From positions 2,464,001-2,528,000 of the forward strand of contig OY970296.1 in NCBI GenBank assembly GCA_963716175.1: 64,000 nt of DNA, given 5' to 3'. The DNA is from an uncultured Armatimonadetes bacterium (lineage in GTDB: Bacteria > Armatimonadota > Hebobacteria > Hebobacterales > Hebobacteraceae). Below are positions 2,720 through 64,000 of the stretch, piece by piece. How positions within the stretch are numbered: position 1 is the first letter of the stretch; each line of letters opens with the position of its first letter. The notes beneath the pieces were generated by a model. The model was not told the DNA's origin. It saw only the letters and a program-made list of their open reading frames with translations, and did not search any database. Position numbers and translations under genes: made by a program.

Positions 2720-3711
2720 CCCGCGTTGCCGCGCTGGCCGCCGCCGTCTTCCTCGCTTGCGGGCTCGCCGCAGCCCGGCCCCTCACTGACTCCGAGTACA
2801 GTCGCGTTCTCACCCAGGTAGCAACTCGTCTGGCGCAGGCCGGTGCCGCGCGTGACGGGGCGAGCCTGGCCCGGGCGGCCCTGGACGGACTGCCCGACCG
2901 CTGCCAAGTGCAGGCCGCGCCGAACGCACCTCCCCTGGCCGTGGACAACCGCGAGGTGCTGCGGAGGCTGCGCCGCCAAGTGGCCCAGGGACCCGACGGC
3001 GTCAGATTCGCGGCCCAAGTGGTGCAGAACCTCGCGGTAAGCTGTAGGGCAGGTCCGCGACCTGCCCCGCCCACTCACGCCCACCGCGTTCTCGCCGAGG
3101 TCCTTTCCCGTCCGGAGTTCCATCCCAGCCCACTGGCCGGCCTGCAGGTCCGCTTCTTGCGATGGATCGGCCGCGCCGTTCAGTGGGTCCTCGACACCAT
3201 CGCCAGTGTTCTCGACCGCCTGACCGGGCTGGGTCCGCGGCTGCCTCGCCGCGCCCAGCGCGCGATCCTGGTCGCCCTGCTCGTGCTCTCCGCGGGGGCA
3301 ACGCTCGTGCTGATCGCGCGGTTGGCGCTGCGGATCGCCTCCAGTAGGACAGGGCCGCGACCTGCTACTGCCGCAGGGCAGGGCCGCGACCTGCCGCCTC
3401 ACCAGCACTGGCTATCCCAGGCCGAGGCAGCGACTCGCTCGCAGGACTACCGGGCAGCGGTGCGGGCCCTGCACATGGCCGCCCTCATGAGGCTGGACGA
3501 GGCGGGCCGGATCAGCTATGTCAGCTCCCAAACCGACCGGCGGTTCGTGCGTGCATTGAAGGAACACCAGCTCGATGATCTCTCAGACTCCTTGGCCGCG
3601 CTCAACCGGCTCTTCGCCGTTGTCTGGTATGGCTTCGCGCCGGCCGGCCCGGACGAGTACCGCCTTGCGCGCGAGCATTGGAGCCGACTGGAGGCACTCA
3701 GCGCGCCATGA
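2716..3711 (+). CDS. DUF4129 domain membrane protein
   Basis: GTG overlapping the upstream TGA; signal-like N-terminus; EVLSRPEF, YRAAVRALH and F..VWYG motifs. Confidence 0.75.
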   Translation: MTRVAALAAAVFLACGLAAARPLTDSEYSRVLTQVATRLAQAGAARDGASLARAALDGLPDRCQVQAAPNAPPLAVDNREVLRRLRRQVAQGPDGVRFAAQVVQNLAVSCRAGPRPAPPTHAHRVLAEVLSRPEFHPSPLAGLQVRFLRWIGRAVQWVLDTIASVLDRLTGLGPRLPRRAQRAILVALLVLSAGATLVLIARLALRIASSRTGPRPATAAGQGRDLPPHQHWLSQAEAATRSQDYRAAVRALHMAALMRLDEAGRISYVSSQTDRRFVRALKEHQLDDLSDSLAALNRLFAVVWYGFAPAGPDEYRLAREHWSRLEALSAP

Positions 3712-4931
3712 AGCTGCCCCGCGAAGCCTGGTGGGTGGCCGGCCTGATGGTGCTCACCTTCCTGCTGCTTCTCCTGCTGACCGGGGGAGAAGCGGAGCGC
3801 GGCAGGCCGGCCGGGCCGCCTGTCCGCACCAGCTACAGCTCCGAGCCGGGCGGGCTGCGCGCCCTCTATCTCGCGCTCGATTGGCTCGGCTACGATGCCC
3901 GCCGGCTGGGCACGCCGTTCCTGCCGGGCGCTCTGCCCGAGCGGGGAACACTGCTCGTGGTCGAGCCCATGACGCTGGCAAACTCCGAGTGGCGTGCGCT
4001 CCGCAACTGGGTGGCCGAGGGCCATGCCCTGCTCGTGGCGGGCGAAGATTCCCTCCCCAACAGCGAGACCGTATTCCCGATCCCGCAGCCCGATTTCGAG
4101 ACTCTCTTCCCGGAGGTGGCCCTCACCTACGCGAGACCGGATCAGCCGACCTATCTCGCGCTCGGACTGGCGCGGCTTGCGGTCCGCTCGAGAACGCGGA
4201 TCACTCCCCCAGCAGTAGTAGGCCGGGTCCGCGACCTGCCCACCCTTGCCGTGCCCAAGCCGGCCCGCGGCATGGCGGGCGACCTGGGCTCTGCCGCCCC
4301 GCTGTTTCGCGATGAGAAAGGCACGGTGGTTGCCTACGCGGAGATTGGAAAGGGAAGCGTGATCCTGCTGACCAGCCCCTGGAGCCTGTCGAATCAGGGC
4401 ATCGAGAAGGAGGGCAACTTCACGTTCGTGTTGAACGCGCTGGAGCACGGGCCGGTCTACTTCGACGAGTACCACCACGGCTACGGTGAGAATCTGCTTT
4501 GGCGCCTGCTGCCGCTTCCGCTGAAGCTGGCTGCCGCGCAGGCGCTGTTGGGGCTGCTGGTGGTGATGTACGCGCGAAGCCGCCGCTTTGGGCCGATCAT
4601 TCCGCTGGACGAGGGAAGGAGGGAACGCAGCGAGTACCTCGGCACCATGACCGGCCTGCTTCAGAAGGGCCGCGCCGCTCATCTCGCATTGCAGACCGCC
4701 TATGACGCGGCGATGGCGCGTCTGCGCTTCGAGCTGGGCCTGCCGCACGACGCTGCGCCCGCCGAGGTGGCGCGGGCGGCCGGCCGTGTGGATGCAGCCG
4801 CAGGCGAGAAGCTCGCGGCGGCACTGGAGCAGTCCCACCGCGCGCTGGAGCTTGCCCGCGTGGGCGAAGCGCGAGCAATGTCCCTAGTCCGGCAGCTCGA
4901 TGAGGCCGTGCAATCAGTGCGCCAGCTCTAA
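3708..4931 (+). CDS. DUF4350 domain protein
   Basis: ATGA overlap; TSYSSEPGGLRAL, WVAEG, VYFDEYHHG and RRFGP motifs. Confidence 0.8.
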   Translation: MKLPREAWWVAGLMVLTFLLLLLLTGGEAERGRPAGPPVRTSYSSEPGGLRALYLALDWLGYDARRLGTPFLPGALPERGTLLVVEPMTLANSEWRALRNWVAEGHALLVAGEDSLPNSETVFPIPQPDFETLFPEVALTYARPDQPTYLALGLARLAVRSRTRITPPAVVGRVRDLPTLAVPKPARGMAGDLGSAAPLFRDEKGTVVAYAEIGKGSVILLTSPWSLSNQGIEKEGNFTFVLNALEHGPVYFDEYHHGYGENLLWRLLPLPLKLAAAQALLGLLVVMYARSRRFGPIIPLDEGRRERSEYLGTMTGLLQKGRAAHLALQTAYDAAMARLRFELGLPHDAAPAEVARAAGRVDAAAGEKLAAALEQSHRALELARVGEARAMSLVRQLDEAVQSVRQL

Positions 4932-4936
4932 CCCCT

Positions 4937-4962
4937 GTGGGGCGGGCCTTCCCGCGCCCGCC
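4937..4962 (+). repeat. REP-like GTGG + hairpin
   Basis: GTGG-GGCGGGC-cttcccgc-GCCCGCC directly after a stop codon. Confidence 0.4.
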
Positions 4963-5043
4963 GGGCGCTGGCAGTTGCTGGTAGAAGCGGGGCAGGCCCG
5001 TGGCCTGCCCCTCGGAATGTTGCCTGAAATGAGGGAAGCGACC

Positions 5044-5991
5044 ATGACCATACAGGACTTGATGGCAGCAGTGAGGGCCGAGGTGGGCAAGGTAGTGCTC
5101 GGCCAGGAGGGGGTGGTGACGCAACTGGCGACCGCGCTGCTGGCGCGCGGCCACGTGCTGGTGGAAGGCGTCCCGGGCGTGGCCAAGACGCTCTTGGGGA
5201 GGGCCCTGGCGCGGTGCATCAGCGCCCAGTTCAAGCGGGTCCAGTGCACCCCGGATCTCATGCCGGCCGACATCACCGGCACCAATGTCTTCGACAGCCA
5301 GGCGCGCACCTTCCGGCTGATGAAGGGCCCCGTGTTCACCAATGTGCTGCTCGTGGATGAGATCAACCGCACCCCGCCCAAGACCCAGTCTGCGCTGCTG
5401 CAGGCGATGCAGGAGCGATGCGTCACCATAGATGGCGTTGACCATCCGTTGGAGGGCATCTTCTTCGTGATGGCCACCCAGAATCCCATCGAGTACGAGG
5501 GAACATATCCGCTGCCGGAGGCCCAGCTCGATCGCTTCCTGATGAAGGTAGACGTCCGCTACCCGGAGCGAGCAGCCGAGGAGAACATCCTGCGGCTGCA
5601 CCTGCAGGGGAAGGACCCCCAGGACCTGGAGGCGGCCGGCGTGCGCCCGGTGATCGGGCTCTCGGAACTCCAGGTCGCCGAGCAAGAGCTGTCGCGCCAG
5701 ATCGTGCGAGATGAGATGGTGGCCTACATCGCCGAGCTGGCAGGGCGCACCCGGGAATCGCCTCACACCTTGCTGGGCGCCAGCCCGCGGGCCGCGGTGG
5801 CCCTGCTGCGCTGCGCCCAGATCCGGGCCGCGGCCCAGGGGCGAGATTTCGTGGAGCCCGATGACGTCCAGGACATGGCCCCGCCGGTGCTGCGCCATCG
5901 CATCATCCTGAAGCCGGAGGCCGAGGTCGAAGGACTCAGCGTGGAGCGGCTGGTGGAAAGTGTCATCTCAGCAGTCCCCGTCCCTCGCTAG
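5044..5991 (+). CDS. moxR: MoxR family AAA+ ATPase
   Basis: Walker A EGVPGVAKT, TPDLMPADITG, Walker B LLVDEINR, ATQNPIEYEGTYPLPEAQLDRF. Confidence 0.95.
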   Translation: MTIQDLMAAVRAEVGKVVLGQEGVVTQLATALLARGHVLVEGVPGVAKTLLGRALARCISAQFKRVQCTPDLMPADITGTNVFDSQARTFRLMKGPVFTNVLLVDEINRTPPKTQSALLQAMQERCVTIDGVDHPLEGIFFVMATQNPIEYEGTYPLPEAQLDRFLMKVDVRYPERAAEENILRLHLQGKDPQDLEAAGVRPVIGLSELQVAEQELSRQIVRDEMVAYIAELAGRTRESPHTLLGASPRAAVALLRCAQIRAAAQGRDFVEPDDVQDMAPPVLRHRIILKPEAEVEGLSVERLVESVISAVPVPR

Positions 5992-7339: not shown

Positions 7340-8290
7340 GCGGGTCGTGATCCGCGCCTCGCGGCGCCGACCACAAACCCACACCACTGGCCTGGCCGGC
7401 CCCTTCCCAGTGGCGCGGGTTTGCCGCGAGGGCAGCGAGCGACAACCTGCGCAGCCCGCCTGAGGCGGGCTCTATCCCCCTTTCAATCTCCTCAACTCCT
7501 CCTTCCCCGGGCACCAGAACCACTCATACCCCCACCCGTCCTCAACCAGTCCCTTCCGCTGCGCATTGTCAAGGATATAGCCGGCCTTCTCATCGAACTC
7601 GGCCTGACTGCGCACCATGCGATCCATTCTCTCCGACTGCCACAATCGGCCTCGCCGCCCCCGGAGCCGGTTGATCTCCCAGGCCGTTGTCCGCTTCACA
7701 CTATGCAGCAACCCGCGCAGCGGGTACCAGACTCCCGAGGACTTCTCCAATGGCCGAGCCAGTATGTGGACATGGTCCGGCATCACGGTGAGCGCATAGA
7801 CGAACCATCTCTTGTCGTGCCAGAACAGGATGGTCCGCATGATAATATGTCGCTCCTGCGGAGCGAACGCCCGCCACACGGCCGGCGGGCAAGCGGGTTG
7901 CGGCGCAACGCCTGACGGCGGTCGCCGCAAACCCACGCCACTGGAGGCGGGATAAGTGCCGTGCAGCCGGCAGGTGATGAAGTACGTGGAGCCGCCGACC
8001 TCCCAGTGGGGGAGATGGCGCCGGTAGATGGTGAGTTCATCTGTGACTCCTGACTCGTCGCCTCGCTCGTCGGAATCGGGCATCGCTGTTCTCACTGTCG
8101 GCCTGCTGGGTTCTGGGAAAGGATCTGCTTCCATGGTGAACCCTTGCTCTCCCTCCAGAAGAACAGGACCCCTCCAACCAGTGGCGCGGGTTTGTCGCGA
8201 GGGCAGCGAGCGACAACCTGCGAAGGCGCGGGCCGGGGACGCGGGTTGCGGCGCAACGCCTGACGGCGCGGACCACAAACCCGCGTCACT
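7340..8290. repeat. Cluster of five related REP-like palindromes around and inside the RAYT gene
   Basis: Core AGTGRYGYGGGTTTG...CRACCYGC at 7340-7389(-), 7407-7451(+), 7893-7944(-), 8178-8222(+), 8240-8290(-); the two + copies match at 44/45 nt. Confidence 0.85.
7472..8134 (-). mobile_element. REP-associated tyrosine transposase (RAYT, Y1 HUH, IS200-like); start 8134 or 8083
   Basis: YRRHLPHW..TYFIT, HUH motif VMPDHVH, SVKR, LWQSE..DR, catalytic YILDN; flanked by REPs. Confidence 0.88.
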
Positions 8291-56652: not shown

Positions 56653-56728
56653 CCGCAATGCCGGCGCGCGCGTCCACTGTGCTTCCAGGCTCGAAGCGGA
56701 TAGACGTAGATGCAGGAGAGAGATAGTG

Positions 56729-58411
56729 ATGGGGACCACTGGCAGCTACGACCCCTGCTATTGGATCTTCGCCCTGCGCAACCCGGAGGACCTGGACTGG
56801 GCGAAGGCGCAGGGCTTTGGCGGAGTGGGTTTCTGGGGCGCGGATCGCGATGGCGATAACCTGAAGTACTACTTCACCTCGCCCACCCTGGCGGCCCAGC
56901 CCTGGGCGCGTTTCGAGGGAGACCGCCTCACCCCCTTCGCCGCCCGCGCCCATGCCCTGGGGCTGAAAGTGTTCGTCAACATGGAGGGCGTGAACCCCTG
57001 GCACTGGCCGCCTGGGCGCACCAACTGGAGCCCGAAAATCCTGGCCGGCGTGATCACCGATCTGCACCACTGCGGCACGGACCGCTGGTTCGACGAGTGC
57101 TTCAGCTGCTATTCGGACTTCTTCTTTGCGCTCGCGAATACCGCCAAGCACATCGGAATGGAGTATCAGGAGGGGACTGATCCGCAGTCGCTCTACAGCG
57201 AGGCCCAGTTCCAGACTCGCAGCAACTTCCCCGGGCTTTTCGAGCACTGCCACCCCCTCGGCATCTACCATTATTACCTGCGGCGCGATGTCGGCTTCAA
57301 CACTGCCACCCTGGCTCAGGAGGGGACTCTGGGCTACGGCTTCGCGAAGGCCTGGGGCCACCCCATGGCCCTGGTCTACTCCATCGCGCATGACTGGGGG
57401 ATCAGTCCAGAGCATTGGCCGGGCGTGCTGCGAGCGTGCTGTCTGATCCGGGCGCTGCAGTTTCGGGTTGACGACATCATGGTGATCGGCGTGAACTCCG
57501 AGCGCGGCGCCCGGCTCGACGTGCCGGCCACCAAGGCCTGGGTCGCGGGATACGTGGAGAAGCAGGCGCAGGAGCGGCGTCCCTTGCTCAACATCATCGC
57601 CCACCTCTCCATAGGGACGAATGCACACTGGGATGACTTTGCGGTGTCAGGCGATGCTATCACCTCGGGCGCGTTCCACGCCGGCTATGATGTGGCCTGC
57701 AGCACCAGCCCCCTGGCGGATGCCGACGCCTATTGGGTCTACACGCGAGGAAGCGACCAGGAGGGGACTCTGGACCTGACCCCCGAGATCGCCCGCTTGT
57801 GGGATGGCGCCAACCCGGTCTTCCTGCAATGCGGCGCCCGCATCCCCAGCGGAGAGTCTCTGACCGAGAGCTGGAGTAAGGTGCTGACCGAGTGCGGCGT
57901 GAACCCGGAGGCCGGCTTCGATTACGGGGACCTGCCCGCGACCAGCGCCTATCAGGGCCTGACCTTCAAGTACACCGGCTATCGGGCAAAGGGCGAGCAA
58001 GGTACGGAGCGCCGCCGCGGCACCTTGATCCCAAAGACCGCGGTGACTGGGACCGTGCATGCTGCCTCGGCTGCCACGCCCCTGATCATCGGCCGCAACC
58101 GCAAGTACCTGATCCCGGCCACCTGCCTGAGCTGGCAGGCGAGCTATCCCATTGGTCAGCTCCTTTCCGGCTGCGGGGCGAAGCCCACCTCCAACGTCTG
58201 GGGGATCGCGGGGGAGAAGGTAACGGCCCTGCTGGCGATCGAGGACACGACGCTCGAGATCACTCTCCCGCGCCTGGAGGACGGCGCCAGGATTCACGTG
58301 GTTGAGTGGGACGAGTATCACCACAGAGTCCGCGAGGACACGGTCACGTACCGGGCACCGTTCAGCAGGGGTCTGGGGCGCTACCACTTGCTGGTAGTGG
58401 ACGCGGCCTGA
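56729..58411 (+). CDS. Hypothetical protein, possibly glycoside-hydrolase-like
   Basis: 560-aa ORF with typical codon usage; AARAHALGLKVFVN and WFDE resemble TIM-barrel GH segments (weak). Confidence 0.65.
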   Translation: MGTTGSYDPCYWIFALRNPEDLDWAKAQGFGGVGFWGADRDGDNLKYYFTSPTLAAQPWARFEGDRLTPFAARAHALGLKVFVNMEGVNPWHWPPGRTNWSPKILAGVITDLHHCGTDRWFDECFSCYSDFFFALANTAKHIGMEYQEGTDPQSLYSEAQFQTRSNFPGLFEHCHPLGIYHYYLRRDVGFNTATLAQEGTLGYGFAKAWGHPMALVYSIAHDWGISPEHWPGVLRACCLIRALQFRVDDIMVIGVNSERGARLDVPATKAWVAGYVEKQAQERRPLLNIIAHLSIGTNAHWDDFAVSGDAITSGAFHAGYDVACSTSPLADADAYWVYTRGSDQEGTLDLTPEIARLWDGANPVFLQCGARIPSGESLTESWSKVLTECGVNPEAGFDYGDLPATSAYQGLTFKYTGYRAKGEQGTERRRGTLIPKTAVTGTVHAASAATPLIIGRNRKYLIPATCLSWQASYPIGQLLSGCGAKPTSNVWGIAGEKVTALLAIEDTTLEITLPRLEDGARIHVVEWDEYHHRVREDTVTYRAPFSRGLGRYHLLVVDAA

Positions 58412-58663: not shown

Positions 58664-60064
58664 GTGATTCATCTAGTCGGTACCAACCACAAACGGACCT
58701 CAGTGGATGGCCGGGAGCGGTTGGCCTCGGGCCAGGGCCCGGCCGCAGAGTTGGTAGCTAGCGCGCGGGCTGACCTGGGTGCCCGCGAGTGCGTGCTGTT
58801 GGCCACCTGCAACCGATTTGAGGCCTACTTCCTGGCCTCCCCCCATCTCTTTGACCCTACGGCAGCGAGGAGCCTGTTCGGGGCCGGGGTTGCCGGCGGC
58901 GAAGTGTTGGCCGCCGACAGCATCTACTACCATAGCGGGCGCGAGGCCGTCGCCCACTTGCTCACCGTGGCTTCCGGCCTGGACTCTATGGTGCTGGGTG
59001 AGCATGAGATCCTTGGCCAGGTCAAATCTGCCCTGGCGGGAGCGCTGGAGCGGAAGCAAGCCGGCCCCACCCTCACCCGTCTCTTCCAGCACGCGGTGAG
59101 GACCGGCAAACGGGCGCGGCGGGAAACGGCCATCTCCCGCGGCATCTTCTCTCTGGGCCAGTGCGCCGCTCGGGTGGCGGAGGGAGTGTTGGGCGACCTG
59201 GAGGGCAAGCGGGTGCTGATGCTGGGAGCCGGCCGGATGGCCAAGATGACTGGCAAACACCTCGCGGCCTTCGGCGCCCGGCCCATCGCTGTTTTCAGCC
59301 GCACTCCCGAGAGGGCCAGGGATCTGGCCGCGGCGCTGGGCGGCCAGGCCATCGGCGGCACTGAACTCATCGGAGCTCTGCAGACTGCTGACATCCTGAT
59401 CGGATGCGCGGCCGCCCCTCACCATATCATCGGTCGGCCCCAGGTCGAGCAGGCGCTTGAGGGCCGCCAGCACCGGCCCCTGGTGGTGATTGACCTGGGG
59501 GTGCCCAGAAACGTGGATCCCGCGGTCAGACCCCTCGCTGGGGTGAATCTCTTCGACCTGGACGACTTGGAGGCAGTGGTGGCCGAGAACGCAGAGGCGC
59601 GGGAGGCCGAGATCGAGCGGGTCCGCGCCATCGTCGCGGAGGAGACGGCCGAGTTCGAGCGCTGGCACGCCCGCGCCCGGGCCGCCGCGATCGTCGCTCG
59701 GCTTCAGGCAAAGGCAGAGGAGGTGCGCCAGGAGTGCCTGAGAAAGGTGGCGGGCAAGCCGCTTGGGGAGGGTGATGCGTCCACCCTCGACTATCTCACC
59801 GACTTGCTGGTGAGGAAGCTGCTTCACCGCCCCCTGGTCGCGCTGCGGGAAGCGGTTGGCGAAGAGCCTGGCGAGGCTGACCTCGACCTGACCAGCGCGG
59901 TTGCCAGGCTGTTTGACCTGGCCGAATCCAGCCAGCCTGAGGTCTTGGAGCAGCCTGCTGACGAGCGCGCCACACCGACGGCGGACGATCCCGCTACACC
60001 GACGGCGGGCGAGACCTCCAGACGGCCGGCGGGCAAGCTTCGGGGGGCGGGTGGCCGATCCTGA
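58664..60064 (+). CDS. hemA: Glutamyl-tRNA reductase
   Basis: VGTNHK, catalytic TCNRFE, SGLDSMVLGEHEILGQVK, GK.AR.ET.I, LGAGRMA, IDLGVPRNVD. Confidence 0.96.
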   Translation: MIHLVGTNHKRTSVDGRERLASGQGPAAELVASARADLGARECVLLATCNRFEAYFLASPHLFDPTAARSLFGAGVAGGEVLAADSIYYHSGREAVAHLLTVASGLDSMVLGEHEILGQVKSALAGALERKQAGPTLTRLFQHAVRTGKRARRETAISRGIFSLGQCAARVAEGVLGDLEGKRVLMLGAGRMAKMTGKHLAAFGARPIAVFSRTPERARDLAAALGGQAIGGTELIGALQTADILIGCAAAPHHIIGRPQVEQALEGRQHRPLVVIDLGVPRNVDPAVRPLAGVNLFDLDDLEAVVAENAEAREAEIERVRAIVAEETAEFERWHARARAAAIVARLQAKAEEVRQECLRKVAGKPLGEGDASTLDYLTDLLVRKLLHRPLVALREAVGEEPGEADLDLTSAVARLFDLAESSQPEVLEQPADERATPTADDPATPTAGETSRRPAGKLRGAGGRS

Positions 60065-60089
60065 TCTGATTGTACGGAGAGAGGGCGAA

Positions 60090-63008
60090 GTGGCTGACGC
60101 TTGGGTGTGGTTCCGAAGAAGGGCAGTCGGCAAGATCGTGGGAGTGAGTCTGGCGGCCGGGGTTTGCGCAGTGGTGCTGTTCTTTCCCGGCGGCCTGGTG
60201 GTGCGGGCCGAGGAGCAAGCAAAGGCCCCCATATCGGGGACGGCCGCGGTGTGCGCGGGCTGCCACCCCGAGGCGGCACAGAGCTGGGCGAACAGCCTGC
60301 ATCGCCGCACCGTTGGCGCGCCCCAGCTCAAGAGTGAGTGGCAGGGCTGCGCTGCCTGCCATCGCGGCGCCAGCGAGCACCTCGCCGATGTCACTGATGT
60401 GAGCAAGCGGCCCACCCTGGCGAACCTGACCCCGGACCAGATCACCGACCTCTGTCAGACCTGCCACCGCGGCGGCAAGCAGGCGCTGTGGATGCTCTCG
60501 CCGCACTCTCGCACCAAGGAGGCCTGCCTCACCTGTCACGATCCTCACGGTGTCAACCCGGATCACATGCTCAAGGCTCCCGAGGTCGAGCTCTGCCGGC
60601 AGTGCCACCCGACCCAGGTGGCGGAGGGAAATCTGCCCTCCCATCATCCCATCCAAGAAGGGAAGATGACCTGCTCCGACTGCCATAACGTGCATGGAGA
60701 AGAGCGCGGGACTCTGCCAGAGGCCACCAATGGCGAGATGTGCTACCGCTGCCATGCCGACAAGCAGGGCCCTTTCATTGCCGAGCATCCGCCGGTGACC
60801 GAGGATTGCACCATCTGCCACCGGCCGCACGGCTCGCCCGTGGACAACTTACTGGTGGAAGACATGCCCATGCTCTGCCTCCAGTGCCATAGCGGCCACG
60901 GCAGCAACCACCGTGATGCCCTGGTTCCAGTGACCACCGATCCCGCCGGCGTGGCCAACGGCCTGCAGGCCATCGGCGCCTTCTACACCAGGTGCACCAG
61001 TTGCCACAGCCGCATCCACGGCACCGATCTGCTCTCACAGAGGGGGGAACCGGTCTTCATGCCAGGCACTCCGCTCGCGCCGCTGGGATCGGAGGAAATC
61101 GGGACCGCGATGAAGGCCGCCGCCCTTGACCAGAGCCTGTGGGGCTTCAGCTATGTGGACGTGGGGCGGTTCGATCAAGACAACAACCCCCAGTTCGTCC
61201 GGGAGTGGGATGGCAAGGACTACAACGTGCCCACCTCCCGCCTCAGCATCGTCAAGTACGGCCAGCAGGACGACTTGCGTTTCGAGGCCACTGACCTGCC
61301 CCGGGGCGACCAGGAGATCAGGCTGCGTTTCGGCAGCCCGCGCTACGACGTGCAGATCAGGCAGTCCGGCCTTACCCACCGCCTGGGACGTTTCGATGAG
61401 AATGTGGACGTCATGGTCCCGGCCTTCCCGTCGCACGGGAGCAGCACCTATCAGGTCAACACCACTGACCTGACAGACGGCGAGAATGACTTCAGAATAA
61501 ACCGGACCTTGGTAGACGCGCGCCTCGCCGCGCGCTGCCCCAGGCTGCCCTACGCCAAGCTCCTCCTGAACTACTGGCAGGCGGCGGAAACGGGGACCAG
61601 GCAGTTTCTGTTCGTAAGTCATTGCACCGCTTGCCACAAGATCCAGACCGCGGAGCCCATTGACCGCATCACCACCATCACCGAAGGAGGCGCCCAACTC
61701 GATTTCCCCAAGGCCTCTTTGCGCTATCTGCGAGGCCACGAGGAGTTCAGCAACCGCGCTCCCGAGAGCTACTTCACTTTCGCCGGTGCAGGACCGGTCT
61801 TCGCCGGCACTGCCCCCCTCTTCGGGGTGGCCAGCACCCGCGCCGACACCAACGACCTTCGCGGCTCGGCCGCCATTGGCGACCGCGTCAGCGTGGCCGC
61901 GCTATGGCGGACCCGAGACCGGAGGGACCTGCTGGGCAATGGGACGATCAACATCAGCAGCGCCGGCGGCGGCGCCACTTACGCCCTGTCACCCCATCTG
62001 CGGCTGCAGACTAGCGCCTTCCGGCGTCGCCTGAACACGTCGCCGCTGCTCGAGGAGGGCATCGCCCGGGACCGGGATACCACCCGGGCCGACCTGCGGT
62101 TCACCGGCCTGCCCCACACCATTGTCAACGTAGGCTATGAGGTAGAGGCGGTGCGTCGGGCCGACGAGCGGGCGCTGGTGCCGGACAGGAGCGATTCCAG
62201 CATCTGGAGCAGCTCGCTCCTCTTCCGGCCGCTCTCTCGACTCTCACTGCAAGTTCGCTACAGGAATACCAAGACCGATCAGAGGGACTTCTTCGATCCC
62301 ACGGCCCCGCCCGCCCAATTCGGCGCGCGGCTGCTTGGCCTGCCCACCGATGGCACTCTGCTCTCCGCCGTGCTCAGCTATAGCCTGCGCAGCAATACCA
62401 TGCTGAGCGGGATGTACAACCGGCAACGCGACATCTTCGAGGAAACCGCGCCGGAGTTGGGGATCTTCAACCAGGTTGAGCAGGAGACCAGGAGCTGGGG
62501 CAGCCAGCTAGTGCACAACCGCGGGCGCAGCCAGCTCAGCGCCGGCTACTACCGCCAGGACGGCAGCAACCTCACCAACGCCATCTACGGCAAGGATACC
62601 TTCACGCTCGCGCCTCCGCTGGTCGAGTCCTCGGTGGACTTCCCGCCGATTGACTCGCACGTCGCCTACGACTACCGAGCTACCATCGAGACTCTGGACG
62701 GCTCGACCTGGCTGACTTCGCGGGTGCGGCTCTTTGGGCGCTATGCTCGCACCCAGACCGACGGCCGGGAAAGGCTAAACGACCTGGGAGATTATCTCGA
62801 TCAGAACCCTGATCTGAACGGCGTGGCCGTCATCCTGAACCCCTTCGATATCGAGATCCTGGATCGCTGGTGTGGGGTAGGCTACGCCGTAGACAGGGAC
62901 ACCGAAGTAGTGCTCAGTCAGCAGCGTCGCTCCTGGGATGACGCCGCCAATCCCTCCCATGATGGCGCTTACACCCTGTGGCGACTTGGTCTGCGCAAGC
63001 AGTTCTAA
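60090..63008 (+). CDS. DmsE/MtrA-type decaheme cytochrome c fused to an outer-membrane beta-barrel with one extra CXXCH
   Basis: GTG after GGAGAGAGG; signal peptide ending VRA; ten CXXCH at 60252-61007; about 620 aa of amphipathic strands with CTACH at 61623; ends LRKQF. Confidence 0.88.
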   Translation: MADAWVWFRRRAVGKIVGVSLAAGVCAVVLFFPGGLVVRAEEQAKAPISGTAAVCAGCHPEAAQSWANSLHRRTVGAPQLKSEWQGCAACHRGASEHLADVTDVSKRPTLANLTPDQITDLCQTCHRGGKQALWMLSPHSRTKEACLTCHDPHGVNPDHMLKAPEVELCRQCHPTQVAEGNLPSHHPIQEGKMTCSDCHNVHGEERGTLPEATNGEMCYRCHADKQGPFIAEHPPVTEDCTICHRPHGSPVDNLLVEDMPMLCLQCHSGHGSNHRDALVPVTTDPAGVANGLQAIGAFYTRCTSCHSRIHGTDLLSQRGEPVFMPGTPLAPLGSEEIGTAMKAAALDQSLWGFSYVDVGRFDQDNNPQFVREWDGKDYNVPTSRLSIVKYGQQDDLRFEATDLPRGDQEIRLRFGSPRYDVQIRQSGLTHRLGRFDENVDVMVPAFPSHGSSTYQVNTTDLTDGENDFRINRTLVDARLAARCPRLPYAKLLLNYWQAAETGTRQFLFVSHCTACHKIQTAEPIDRITTITEGGAQLDFPKASLRYLRGHEEFSNRAPESYFTFAGAGPVFAGTAPLFGVASTRADTNDLRGSAAIGDRVSVAALWRTRDRRDLLGNGTINISSAGGGATYALSPHLRLQTSAFRRRLNTSPLLEEGIARDRDTTRADLRFTGLPHTIVNVGYEVEAVRRADERALVPDRSDSSIWSSSLLFRPLSRLSLQVRYRNTKTDQRDFFDPTAPPAQFGARLLGLPTDGTLLSAVLSYSLRSNTMLSGMYNRQRDIFEETAPELGIFNQVEQETRSWGSQLVHNRGRSQLSAGYYRQDGSNLTNAIYGKDTFTLAPPLVESSVDFPPIDSHVAYDYRATIETLDGSTWLTSRVRLFGRYARTQTDGRERLNDLGDYLDQNPDLNGVAVILNPFDIEILDRWCGVGYAVDRDTEVVLSQQRRSWDDAANPSHDGAYTLWRLGLRKQF

Positions 63009-63136: not shown

Positions 63137-64000
63137 TTGCCGAGAGTGACGGAGAGCCTGAGAGAGGGGGGCGCTGCCGCCCAGAGCAGCGCCCCCTCGG
63201 TCGAACGCGGGTCGCCCGCCTCCGGCGGGCTGGCCCGCATGGCCTCGGTGAGGCTGACCCTGTGGCTGCTGGCCGTGCTCACTATCGGCATGGCCCTGGC
63301 GACTCTCATCCCCTGGGGCGTGCACCGCTTCGCGTGGCTGGAGCCGCTGGTGGCGAAGACCACCTTGCGCAACATCTATGGGTCCTGGTGGTTCATCGGT
63401 GCCTTTGGTCTGCTCGCAGTCAACCTGTTGGCGTGCAGCATCCAGCGCACCGGACAGTTGCTGCGCCAAGGCCAGTTGCCGGAGGGACCTATCACCCGGG
63501 CGCAAGTGCTCGCCCGCGGGCATCAGGCGCGCTGGCGCGTCCCGCGGGATGGAGAAGAGGTGGCGAGCATCCTGGCCGCCTCCCTCCATCGGCGCGGCTA
63601 CCAGGTTGCGGCTCTGCCGGGCGAGAACGGTCACCGCGGGCTGGCCGCGAGGCGCGGCCGGCTGGCGCCTTGGGCGCCGGTGATCGTGCATGTCGGGATG
63701 GTGATCGTCCTGCTGGGGGCCGCCTGGGGGCGGCTGCCGAGTCACACCTACCGGACGGCCGCCGCCCTGCAGCCAGGCGAGACCTTCCCGGTCACCATCG
63801 GCGAGGACGCCTTCGGGCTGCGGCTGGTGGACGCCGGCGCCAAGCGCGACGCCAGGGGGCAGCCCAGCGACTTCTGGGCGCGCGTGGAGCTGATGGAGGA
63901 GGGCAGGGCGGTTCGCGCCGAGACCGTCCGGCCCAACCATCCCCTCCGCTACCACTCCGTGAGCATGGTGCTGCAGAGCATCATGCCCGCGGGATATAGC
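63137..64000 (+). CDS. resB: Cytochrome c biogenesis protein ResB/Ccs1 (runs off the window; absent from the ORF track; start 63137, 63146 or 63239)
   Basis: Manual translation: MASVRLTLWLL..ATLIP..NIYGSWWF...LLAVNLLACSIQR...RGRLAPWAPVIVHVGMVIVLLGA..VRPNHPLRY. Confidence 0.88.
   Translation, partial: MPRVTESLREGGAAAQSSAPSVERGSPASGGLARMASVRLTLWLLAVLTIGMALATLIPWGVHRFAWLEPLVAKTTLRNIYGSWWFIGAFGLLAVNLLACSIQRTGQLLRQGQLPEGPITRAQVLARGHQARWRVPRDGEEVASILAASLHRRGYQVAALPGENGHRGLAARRGRLAPWAPVIVHVGMVIVLLGAAWGRLPSHTYRTAAALQPGETFPVTIGEDAFGLRLVDAGAKRDARGQPSDFWARVELMEEGRAVRAETVRPNHPLRYHSVSMVLQSIMPAGYS

Follow-up and report, generated by a model that had tools for sequence, protein, structure and literature searches.

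The gene at positions 60090..63008 (+ strand) of the window, i.e. the whole stretch of 64,000 nucleotides that was analyzed, is a fusion of a multiheme cytochrome with a porin-like sequence. It probably represents an electron conduit of the outer membrane whose two usual subunits form one polypeptide, with function and direction of electron flow that are putative. From the N-terminal end, the order is one signal peptide, a decaheme domain, a linker of ~40 aa and an all-beta domain of ~620 aa. The fused architecture is conserved and is apparently an undescribed variant of a known conduit type, as no description of it was found.

The gene and its reading frame

The gene is uninterrupted and encodes 972 amino acids, with the stop codon within the range. 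The frame is free of stops from 59901 to 63008 and the gene contains no in-frame TGA. The GTG at 60090 is the likely start codon; the 5′ portion of the open frame, upstream of this position, overlaps hemA, which ends at 60064. The single open reading frame of about 972 aa and the C-terminal Phe described in the earlier note are thus both present. An identical protein is on record and is encoded on a 4.56-Mb contig.

The fusion is genuine and is not an assembly error. This is based on 34 full-length homologues that display the fusion in one frame, and on contigs of three other studies (X2 record 10, X3 record 17 and X4 record 26) that bridge the junction at 61020–61150 with no indel or stop. 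Junction coverage was judged on Logan contigs and not on raw reads, and no single listed piece covers the entire gene. The X1 contigs leave positions 61364–62245 uncovered. X4 record 26 has a deletion of 1 nt at 61538, which is inside a CCCC run and away from the junction. Joints in X2 that skip 60844–60993 or 60847–61002 were rejected as originating from other organisms or from heme-motif repeats, since their short sides are only 20–30 nt and the source is a metagenome.

Domains of the fused protein

The signal peptide is at residues 1–40 (60090..60209, + strand). It displays an RRR n-region, a hydrophobic core, and VRA followed by EEQ, with the cleavage site placed by eye. Residues ~15–40 are the only strongly hydrophobic stretch of the protein, and the sole peak is at residues 16–30 (15-residue Kyte-Doolittle mean of 2.6). 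Across residues 300–380 the maximum is 0.53, and the other two frames across the junction have stops and no signal-like open reading frame. Thus there is no second signal peptide at the junction, in agreement with the earlier note.

The decaheme c-type cytochrome domain encompasses residues ~46–313 (60225..61028, + strand). The ten CXXCH motifs begin at residues 55, 87, 122, 146, 169, 195, 218, 240, 263 and 302, a span of ~300 residues. Judged by profile matches, the domain appears to be a DmsE/MtrA-type cytochrome that is OmcK (GSU2203)-like. The match to TIGR03508 (DmsE decaheme) is 209 bits against a cut-off of 192.2, with residues 53–313 corresponding to profile positions 3–255 of 258. NF041028 (GSU2203, OmcK family) is the best-scoring family for the N-terminal half, with 251.9 bits at residues 46–317, a score that is below its cut-off of 325. 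The Pfam search shows heme-motif families only, at residues ~50–320, and nothing on the barrel half. In the AlphaFold model the heme domain is of low quality, with pLDDT less than 50 over most of residues 100–313, and hemes are absent.

All ten motifs listed in the earlier note are present, however the count of ten is incomplete because an eleventh heme-binding motif was overlooked. This is C512-T-A-C515-H516 (61623..61637, + strand) and it is located in the barrel half. All 11 CXXCH motifs are invariant in 35/35 aligned full-length sequences, thus the arrangement is well beyond chance expectation.

The linker is at residues ~314–355 (61029..61154, + strand), and contigs cross it without an indel. 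It displays pLDDT values below 50 at residues 317–357 and no hydrophobic core. A G6 run (61042–61047) and an in-frame ATG at 61110, which encodes M341, are located here as previously described. The linker as a whole is poorly conserved in the consensus; in the alignment of 35 sequences M324, P325, G326 and G352 are invariant, and F323 and P328 are conserved in at least 90%.

Residues ~356–972, including the terminal Phe (61155..63005, + strand), model as an MtrB-like outer-membrane β-barrel. The model is all-beta with pLDDT mostly 65–92, and the strand number is predicted at about 26, as the domain aligns with the 26-strand MtrB. The top Foldseek match is MtrB, 6r2q_B (E-value = 2e-21, TM 0.71 on the target), and the next chain has an E-value of 3.8e-10. 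VIA comparison with 6r2q_B gives a Z of 18.6 versus 11.8 for the next chain, with an rmsd of 3.5 Å and 555 residues aligned over positions 355–972 of the model. MtrB is therefore the best structural match by a wide margin, and the long beta-strand domain of the earlier note does model as a barrel.

Sequence profiles match the C-terminal half less closely. The sole barrel HMM that matches is NF041027 (GSU2204, OmcL family), with 88.4 bits against a cut-off of 350; residues 356–567 correspond to profile positions 26–241 and a second fragment matches 376–451. The protein is unmatched by TIGR03509 (MtrB/PioB) at E-values up to 1. There is also no TIGR03509 match in the genome, although this is a weak search since control genomes are unmatched as well. 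Among the profiles suggested in the earlier note, the DmsE profile (TIGR03508) is above its cut-off and the MtrB/PioB profile has no sequence match. The best families for the N- and C-terminal halves are GSU2203 and GSU2204, both with scores below their cut-offs.

Modeling of the heme domain and the barrel as two chains suggests that the heme domain sits within the barrel lumen, which addresses a question raised in the earlier note. The score is 0.91, and the best of three controls gives 0.00; this pass may stem from resemblance to the solved MtrAB complex. In calibration, 58/80 solved complexes and 2/110 mismatched pairs reach the mark, a calibration that applies only roughly because a custom alignment was supplied. 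The two-chain runs share at least 90% of contacts, and the partner pLDDT is at least 83. The interface is made of alternating, lumen-facing barrel residues, and heme-domain residues 264–317 contact the long barrel loops at 832–840 and 899–919.

In the model the eleventh CXXCH is at the turn between two 23-residue strands, 489–511 and 516–538 (DSSP), and residues 506–509, 515 and 517 are within the modeled interface with the heme domain. Heme 11 may thus be located near the outer end of the heme chain, on a long barrel hairpin. Its membrane side was tentatively assigned by a strand-parity argument from DSSP and the contact list.

Fused and split relatives, and known conduits

The 34 closest full-length fused homologues have 41%–61% identity at a coverage of at least 94%. 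All are single open reading frames, in the same frame and with all 11 motifs. Thus none of the three findings that the earlier note regarded as refutations (an indel or stop at the junction, close homologues that are two genes, or a C-terminal part that does not model as a barrel) was obtained. A search of 401 genomes of the phylum shows seven others with a full-length match and no stop, and one more that is cut by a contig end. The architecture is not confined to this genome or to the phylum.

Relatives elsewhere are mostly two genes, and the stand-alone form is found at 78 of the 80 loci. Split pairs are also found in the same phylum. G367 has a 386 aa decaheme cytochrome, a stop, and then a 670 aa porin with its own signal peptide; the two are in the same frame and are separated by a single TGA. 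Selenocysteine read-through to a fused product was considered with the TGA of G367 translated as U and was rejected for this locus, where the TGA is a genuine stop and the porin signal peptide comes after it. G367 is counted as split; G387, G347 and G332 are further distant matches with one in-frame TGA. In G153 a 313 aa decaheme cytochrome is followed by a TIGR03509 porin (269 bits). The identity of the barrel to stand-alone GSU2204-like porins is only 24%–29%.

A second fused clade carries Acidobacteriota names and consists of P0092, P0094, P0096–98, P0101–104, P0106 and P0107 (1089–1142 aa), and P0079 and P0095 belong with it. The GSU2203-GSU2204 order is as in the present gene. Unlike the present protein, 10 of the 11 have only ten motifs, with no eleventh CXXCH, and the chains end in ...GRSW and not in ...F. 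P0075 (1180 aa) is a further case, where a DmsE-type domain is joined to a TIGR03509 MtrB/PioB barrel. In a decaheme tree of 89 rows the other fused proteins are in separate clades, and at least three changes between the fused and split states are needed. In public data these other fused decaheme-barrel proteins are labeled only as “DmsE family decaheme c-type cytochrome”.

Among the closest known systems is OmcK/OmcL of Geobacter sulfurreducens and syntrophic sulfate reducers; GSU2203 gives the best HMM for the N-terminal half and GSU2204 the sole barrel HMM. GSU2203 and GSU2204 have been proposed as a two-gene porin:cytochrome conduit, according to the accessible text of PMC10553843, and both genes have increased expression on hematite and magnetite (PMC4070692, Table 2). 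The barrel described here bears a CXXCH, as the GSU2204 family name, “CXXCH-containing (seleno)protein”, demands. As in OmcKL (accessible part of PMC10553843), there is no dedicated surface cytochrome gene alongside the fused gene. In contrast to OmcK/OmcL there is one polypeptide with one signal peptide and not two genes, the organism is of a different phylum, the gene is inside a hemA-resB unit, and the scores are below both curated cut-offs.

Similarity to the MtrAB/MtoAB/PioAB/DmsEF systems is seen in the passed TIGR03508 cut-off and in the best structural match, the MtrB of 6R2Q. The model is MtrAB-like in that the lumen houses the heme domain, whose C-terminal half lies on the loop side. 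The parts are however fused here, TIGR03509 is unmatched, an extra heme motif is present in the barrel, and the genome search revealed no MtrC/OmcA partner. The protein also departs from the DmsE/MtrA family norm in that it is not a stand-alone periplasmic subunit but continues in frame into a 620 aa barrel.

Cyc2 of iron oxidizers also has a c-type cytochrome and an outer-membrane barrel on one chain with one signal peptide, however it has one heme and a 16–17-strand barrel (accessible parts of PMC10654088 and PMC13647500), whereas the present protein has ten hemes and an eleventh, with a barrel of the size of MtrB. None of the searches revealed a relationship to Cyc2 at the sequence level. 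In agreement with the earlier note, the multiheme conduits MtrAB, MtoAB, PioAB and OmcKL are known as two-protein systems of cytochrome and porin, and the fused Cyc2 has one heme. Its contrast with the two-gene conduits is overstated, as the distance from OmcKL and MtrAB is smaller than it implied. No description of a decaheme- or multiheme-porin fusion was found in the literature, although such genes may be listed in supplementary tables (PMC9671151, PMC11788075 and PMC10553843). Cyc2 is the only fused cytochrome-porin in the accessible portions of the papers found. The accessible portions of those on Armatimonadota, extracellular electron transfer and multiheme proteins make no mention of a fusion, and the paper that defines Hebobacteria has 0 occurrences of multiheme, decaheme and porin.

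Gene context, proposed function and alternatives

The fused gene is flanked by genes for heme synthesis and cytochrome maturation. Directly upstream is hemA (58664..60064, + strand), which encodes glutamyl-tRNA reductase (TIGR01035, 336.8 bits). Directly downstream is a ResB/Ccs1 gene of system II cytochrome c maturation (63137..64000, + strand, continuing past the window; PF05140, E-values 3.4e-40 and 6e-45), whose full-length product is 473 aa in L003. The upstream hemA is found at 6/6 homologous loci checked and the downstream resB at 5/5 where the open reading frame was scanned. Thus hemA, the fusion and resB form a conserved unit. Further downstream are genes for CcsA, a CbcL-like protein with nine hemes and a cytochrome b (quinol-oxidase-like), a 28-CXXCH NrfH-anchored cytochrome, a 7-heme cytochrome, and a cytochrome b preceded by a Rieske-like motif. 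A neighboring cytochrome b/multiheme gene of the same genome has an apparent frameshift. The genome also has a BamA-like gene (204.6 bits, below the cut-off of 297) and a heme-copper oxidase (269 bits). It displays no match to the MtrC/OmcA family of surface cytochromes (TIGR03507), and no RuBisCO large subunit was found in the assembly, which is 90.85% complete.

The gene context, the BamA-like gene and the models suggest a putative trans-outer-membrane electron conduit with a possible role in extracellular electron transfer. In the proposed mechanism, Sec would export the whole chain via the single N-terminal signal peptide, and the neighboring system II proteins ResB and CcsA would attach eleven hemes in the periplasm. 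BAM would put the C-terminal MtrB-like barrel of ~26 strands into the outer membrane, with the OmcK/MtrA-like decaheme domain threaded through its own barrel such that heme 1 is periplasmic and hemes 9–10 are at the outer mouth. The linker of ~40 residues would double back to where the barrel begins on the periplasmic side, and the eleventh heme would be on a long barrel hairpin close to the outer end of the chain. Electrons may then pass between the periplasmic and inner-membrane cytochromes encoded downstream and an extracellular donor or acceptor. Candidate inner partners are the CbcL-like quinol oxidase, the 28-heme NrfH-anchored cytochrome and the 7-heme cytochrome. MtrA chaperones MtrB through the periplasm (accessible text of bioRxiv 10.1101/2025.06.06.657845), and this offers a rationale for hard-wiring both in one chain.

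The path of the linker is the awkward point of this topology. The C-terminus of MtrA lies at the cell surface in the MtrAB complex, the barrels begin at the periplasmic face and the barrel is ~70 Å high (accessible text of PMC7198977). The linker must therefore return through the barrel or alongside it, and its predicted path has low confidence. By simple arithmetic 40 residues are sufficient to cross ~70 Å. A more specific version of the conduit is offered tentatively and is rather doubtful: a complete one-gene wire with no MtrC-like partner, where the conserved linker would return inside the barrel alongside the heme domain, and an extracellular heme 11, covalently bound at the hairpin tip beside heme 10, would be a built-in surface contact by which electrons leave or enter.

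It is extremely improbable that the fusion is an artefact of a sequencing or assembly indel, such as one in the G6 run, that joined adjacent decaheme and porin genes. The apparent frameshift in the nearby cytochrome gene indicates that indel errors are possible in the assembly, one contig has the deletion at 61538, and the phylum has split pairs, including one whose two genes share a frame and have a single TGA between them. Against this are the 34 independent homologues, which are from several sources, the seven other genomes with no internal stop and the gap-free contigs; moreover the junction has neither a start context nor a signal peptide in any frame, whereas the truly split G367 porin has a clear signal peptide. 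A genuine fusion may also be a precursor: the chain would be exported whole and the linker cut after heme attachment to give an ordinary two-subunit MtrAB/OmcKL-type complex, with the fusion ensuring 1:1 co-delivery of the chaperone cytochrome and the barrel. Such processing is considered unlikely. It is consistent with the predicted disorder and poor overall conservation of the linker, with the chaperone role of MtrA, and with a family precedent for post-secretory proteolysis, as PioA loses ~240 N-terminal residues (accessible text of PMC6831781); cutting would also relieve strain between the surface-side C-terminus of the heme domain and the periplasmic start of the barrel. However, no cleavage motif or protease was identified, the conserved linker positions suggest a structural role, and the linker is long enough to span the barrel uncut.

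An intact one-chain conduit may have another use than mineral respiration, i.e. electron uptake from Fe(II), a mineral or a partner cell, as in MtoAB and PioAB, or delivery to a soluble or chelated acceptor. This is a real possibility, although not the expected one. MtoAB, PioAB and MtrAB are homologues whose direction depends on context alone (accessible text of PMC6831781), and an Armatimonadota “MtoA” is grouped nearer PioA/MtoA in the accessible part of PMC9671151. The heme-copper oxidase could carry incoming electrons to O2, and the lack of an MtrC/OmcA-family match resembles the MtoAB/PioAB arrangement. The RuBisCO result, however, leaves Calvin-cycle lithoautotrophy on iron unsupported. 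The adjoining CbcL-like and NrfH-like cytochromes also argue against uptake, as in Geobacter and Shewanella quinol-dehydrogenase-type cytochromes of these kinds typically go with outward electron flow.

If the one-gene, self-threaded wire is correct, no smaller genetic unit for a multiheme trans-membrane wire would be known, and the protein would offer a natural system in which to test how a cytochrome gets into a barrel during BAM assembly. The conserved fusion itself indicates that tethering of the two parts is compatible with MtrA-in-MtrB assembly, which sets limits on models of cytochrome entry into the barrel. The gene may serve as a single-gene part for engineered electron export, and the eleventh heme on the barrel is a candidate built-in surface electron contact. 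Automatic annotation as a “DmsE family decaheme cytochrome” conceals the porin, and gene-pair surveys of iron cycling and extracellular electron transfer may therefore miss or misread the fusion in Armatimonadota and Acidobacteriota of wetlands and sediments.

The fused reading frame and its conservation

The fused cytochrome-porin gene (60090–63008, forward strand) is a single open reading frame with a GTG start at 60090 and a chain length of 972 aa. The open frame extends back to 59901, a stretch which overlaps hemA (end at 60064). The N-terminus is a typical signal peptide in which an RRR stretch is followed by a hydrophobic core at residues ~15–38 and then by VRA/EEQ. When Kyte-Doolittle hydrophobicity is averaged over 15 residues, this core (mean 2.6) is the sole strongly hydrophobic stretch of the protein. 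The earlier note saw no second signal peptide at the junction and this holds, as residues 300–380 stay at or below 0.53 and the remaining two frames display stops and nothing signal-like. The ten CXXCH motifs it listed are all found, at residues 55–302, and the C-terminal Phe is confirmed. However an eleventh motif, C512-T-A-C515-H516 in the beta-rich half, had been overlooked.

That the two halves form one gene is borne out by metagenome contigs and by homologues. Contigs from three other studies (sets X2, X3 and X4) bridge the junction and its G6 run (61042–61047) without a gap: X2 record 10 at 60895–61527, X3 record 17 at 60090–61131 and X4 record 26 at 60706–61871. The sole indel listed in the metagenome contigs is a 1-nt deletion in X4 at 61538, in a CCCC run well within the barrel part; this deletion, in record 26 (depth 26), is either a contig error or represents a strain with a broken copy. 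Metagenomes of wetlands and sediments, produced by many different studies, contain 31-mers of the fused gene.

A word-indexed search of 5.8 billion proteins shows an identical protein on record, from a 4.56-Mb contig, and 34 further full-length fused clusters from several sources (930–1023 aa, 41%–61% identity, coverage at least 94%), two of which carry the NCBI name Armatimonadota MAG. An 806-aa fragment (P0027) is an additional match. The eleven CXXCH motifs are invariant in the alignment of the protein with these 34 homologues, whose C-terminal residue is Phe in 30 and Leu in four. In the phylum sample, 118 of 401 genomes have some match at E ≤ 1e-10, the majority to the heme domain alone. 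A full-length match free of internal stops is present in seven other genomes of the 401; four are of the same family (G265, G045, G083, G169), one of the same order (G124) and two of the same class (G032, G178). In one additional genome, G212, the match is interrupted by the contig end. An assembly or sequencing artefact as the origin of the fusion is thus excluded for practical purposes. The G124 homologue (L012 1501–4425, reverse strand, 975 aa) is missing the second heme motif of its decaheme domain and retains the one in the barrel, i.e. 9+1 CXXCH motifs.

The barrel, the heme domain and the eleventh motif

Family models treat the two halves differently. With TIGR03508, the DmsE/MtrA decaheme family, the N-terminal domain scores 209 bits, above the cut-off of 192.2, as the earlier note anticipated; the GSU2203 model gives a higher score, 251.9 bits, yet below its own cut-off of 325. 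The only model to recognise the C-terminal half is NF041027 (GSU2204 "CXXCH-containing (seleno)protein"), which matches residues 356–567 at 88 bits, below its cut-off of 350, with a second piece at profile positions 376–451. The MtrB/PioB sequence model also proposed in that note, TIGR03509, leaves the protein unmatched, and a Pfam search of the C-terminal half matched no family. GSU2203 is OmcK and GSU2204 a putative cytochrome, and Geobacter up-regulates both on hematite and magnetite (PMC4070692, Table 2). Murali et al. (PMC10553843) name the pair OmcK/OmcL and propose it to be a two-gene porin:cytochrome conduit of syntrophic sulfate reducers.

The AlphaFold2 model of the whole chain, from a 35-row alignment, has a mean pLDDT of 64.9. 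Most of residues 100–313 of the heme domain fall below 50, which is expected because the hemes are left out of the model. Residues 356–972 are modeled as all-beta (block pLDDT mostly 65–92), as the earlier note expected of this half. The top Foldseek match in the PDB is MtrB (6r2q_B; E-value 2e-21, target TM 0.71), followed by a TonB-dependent receptor (E-value 3.8e-10, TM 0.44). A second aligner also places MtrB first (Z 18.6, rmsd 3.5 Å, 555 of 649 residues aligned, model range 355–972), and the runner-up chain has Z 11.8. Since MtrB is the best structural match, the modeled C-terminal part is taken to work like MtrB.

Residues 45–318 and 345–972 were also folded as two chains, each with its own alignment. 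The score is 0.91 (runs 0.91, 0.92 and 0.91), whereas the best-scoring of three controls reaches 0.00; in calibration the mark is attained by 58 of 80 solved complexes and by 2 of 110 mismatched pairs, figures which apply only roughly here because the authors' own alignment was used. Between runs, 90% or more of the contacts recur, and the partner pLDDT is at least 83. The interface consists of alternate residues on many strands, e.g. 601, 603, ... 613 and 638, ... 650, which are predicted to face the lumen. Heme-domain residues 264–317 (hemes 9–10) contact the long loops 832–840 and 899–919. In MtrAB the N-terminus of MtrA points into the periplasm and heme A10 is at the surface (PMC7198977), and the modeled placement of the heme domain agrees with this orientation. 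For a heme domain within its own barrel, this modeling pass shows likeness to MtrAB, not binding, and it may reflect memory of the MtrAB complex because that structure is already solved.

Counted back from the C-terminal strand, DSSP of the model displays short turns of 2–6 residues (936–937, 875–878, 812–813, 768–769, 716–717, 672–676, 635–636, 596–599, 539–541 and 483–488) that alternate with longer loops (898–920, 834–853, 733–753, 556–582 and others). In outer membrane barrels the periplasmic turns are usually tight and the surface loops long. By this parity CXXCH 512–516 would be extracellular, at the tip of a hairpin formed by two strands of 23 residues each. MtrB is described with the same pattern of turns and loops (PMC7198977). 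Residues 506–509, 515 and 517 belong to the modeled interface with the heme domain, and residue 528, which is ten positions above the periplasmic turn, contacts residue 223, directly after heme 7. By simple geometry the tip would lie about level with hemes 9–10, and on that ground it is hypothesized that heme 11 may prolong the heme chain at the outer mouth of the barrel.

Split relatives and a second fused group

The same phylum also includes split forms. The decaheme of G367 (386 aa) stops at TGA, and seven in-frame codons later a 670-aa porin starts, which has a clear signal peptide of its own and a barrel without CXXCH; identity to the fused protein is 25% over the whole length. G153 has a 313-aa decaheme and, after it, a porin gene of its own, whose product scores 269 bits with TIGR03509, above the cut-off. 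Distant matches across both halves in G387, G347 and G332 have one or two in-frame stops each. These are probably split pairs sharing one frame, as in G367, although they may instead represent a selenocysteine form.

Of 588 confirmed related loci, drawn from species-representative genomes, the best 80 comprise 78 with a stand-alone cytochrome of 10 to 14 CXXCH and two fused ones, one in an Armatimonadota MAG and the other in a "Candidatus Hebobacteria" MAG. The Planctomycetota decaheme relatives (L034–L089) are a distinct extended form of 430–585 aa, mostly with 14 CXXCH. The barrel half alone has 36 matches at E ≤ 1e-3 among 1.84 billion cluster representatives. At E ≤ 1e-30 every full-length match is fused and the remainder are fragments. 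The closest stand-alone porins are GSU2204-like, 650–700 aa, with 24%–29% identity.

A second fused group of 1089–1142 aa, with the C-terminus ...GRSW, has the same domain order, and the eleventh motif is mostly absent; some members carry the NCBI names Candidatus Acidoferrum or Acidisarcina. The JGI metagenome protein P0075 (1180 aa) joins a DmsE-type domain with 9 CXXCH to an MtrB/PioB-type barrel (184.7 bits with TIGR03509, below the cut-off of 240), its JGI label carries both family names, and it is an independent-looking fusion. In a quick, unrooted maximum-likelihood tree of 89 decaheme domains, excluding P0075 and the 14-heme Planctomycetota forms, the Armatimonadota-type fusions are a single clade (SH-aLRT 100) and the Acidobacteriota-type fusions, with P0079 and P0095, a separate one (SH-aLRT 99). 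The tree requires a minimum of three switches between the fused and the split state; since it is unrooted and its deep branches are weak, it does not fix how many fusions were independent.

Genomic setting and proposed function

The fused gene is adjoined by hemA upstream and resB downstream, an order kept in 6 of 6 homologous loci checked for hemA and in 5 of 5 where the resB reading frame was scanned. Upstream of hemA, a 561-aa open reading frame (56726–58411, forward strand) has no match in Pfam or NCBIfam at the applied thresholds. Genes for a 7-heme cytochrome and CcsA lie directly past the window end, as do siroheme-route heme synthesis genes. In this region (L003), positions 3563–5521 (G000:C1:2530563–2532521) encode a nine-heme c-type domain fused to a cytochrome b561/FdnI-type membrane domain, an architecture which we take to be that of the Geobacter quinol oxidase CbcL. 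L003 5518–7545 (G000:C1:2532518–2534545) encodes 675 aa with 28 CXXCH, an NrfH/NapC-type membrane anchor in front and stretches like MtrC/MtrF domain II/IV; it might serve as a wire across the periplasm that links the inner membrane with the fused conduit. A Rieske-like CxHxGC...CxC motif at L003 ~7700–8070 directly precedes a cytochrome b gene with c-heme motifs (L003 8071–10310; G000:C1:2535071–2537310), whose 696-aa product has five C-terminal CXXCH and an Ala/Arg/Pro-rich tail. A 145-aa open reading frame in another frame overlaps it and has eight more CXXCH with the same paired spacing, so that the locus looks like one cytochrome b-multiheme fusion split by a frameshift, either an assembly indel or real.

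In the 4.56-Mb genome, two or more CXXCH motifs are present in only nine open reading frames, and six of these frames lie in this cluster. The genome encodes a heme-copper oxidase and a BamA-like gene (204.6 bits, below the cut-off of 297); neither a RuBisCO large subunit nor an OmcA/MtrC family member was found in it at 90.85% completeness. This context suits a respiratory route by which electrons pass from quinol to the outer membrane. It is compatible with either direction of flow, whether outward to Fe(III), minerals or partner cells or inward as in MtoAB/PioAB.

The most likely reading, which we hold with some confidence, is that the intact chain is a tethered conduit of the MtrAB/OmcKL type. 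Shewanella MtrA chaperones unfolded MtrB across the periplasm (preprint, bioRxiv 10.1101/2025.06.06.657845), and this offers a rationale for tethering the cytochrome to its barrel; fusion would make such chaperoning obligatory and 1:1. The chief alternative is cleavage of the disordered linker (residues ~314–355) after export, which would leave an ordinary two-subunit complex. PioA is a precedent in the family for post-secretory processing (PMC6831781), and we consider such cleavage rather improbable here. The tethered conduit would have parts and a likely mechanism that are already known, those of MtrAB/OmcKL.

The fused proteins are already in public databases, under the sole label "DmsE family decaheme c-type cytochrome". 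An Armatimonadota MAG has a gene annotated as MtoA, and the available text of that metagenome paper (PMC9671151) does not mention a fusion. No decaheme or multiheme fusion to a porin is described in the literature searched, whose coverage leaves out subscription journals and supplements and does not prove absence. The only fused cytochrome-porin in that literature is Cyc2, which is monoheme, unlike the present protein with its eleven CXXCH motifs. What is new is the single-chain architecture, conserved across the lineage and recurring in another phylum, together with an eleventh heme motif borne on the barrel.
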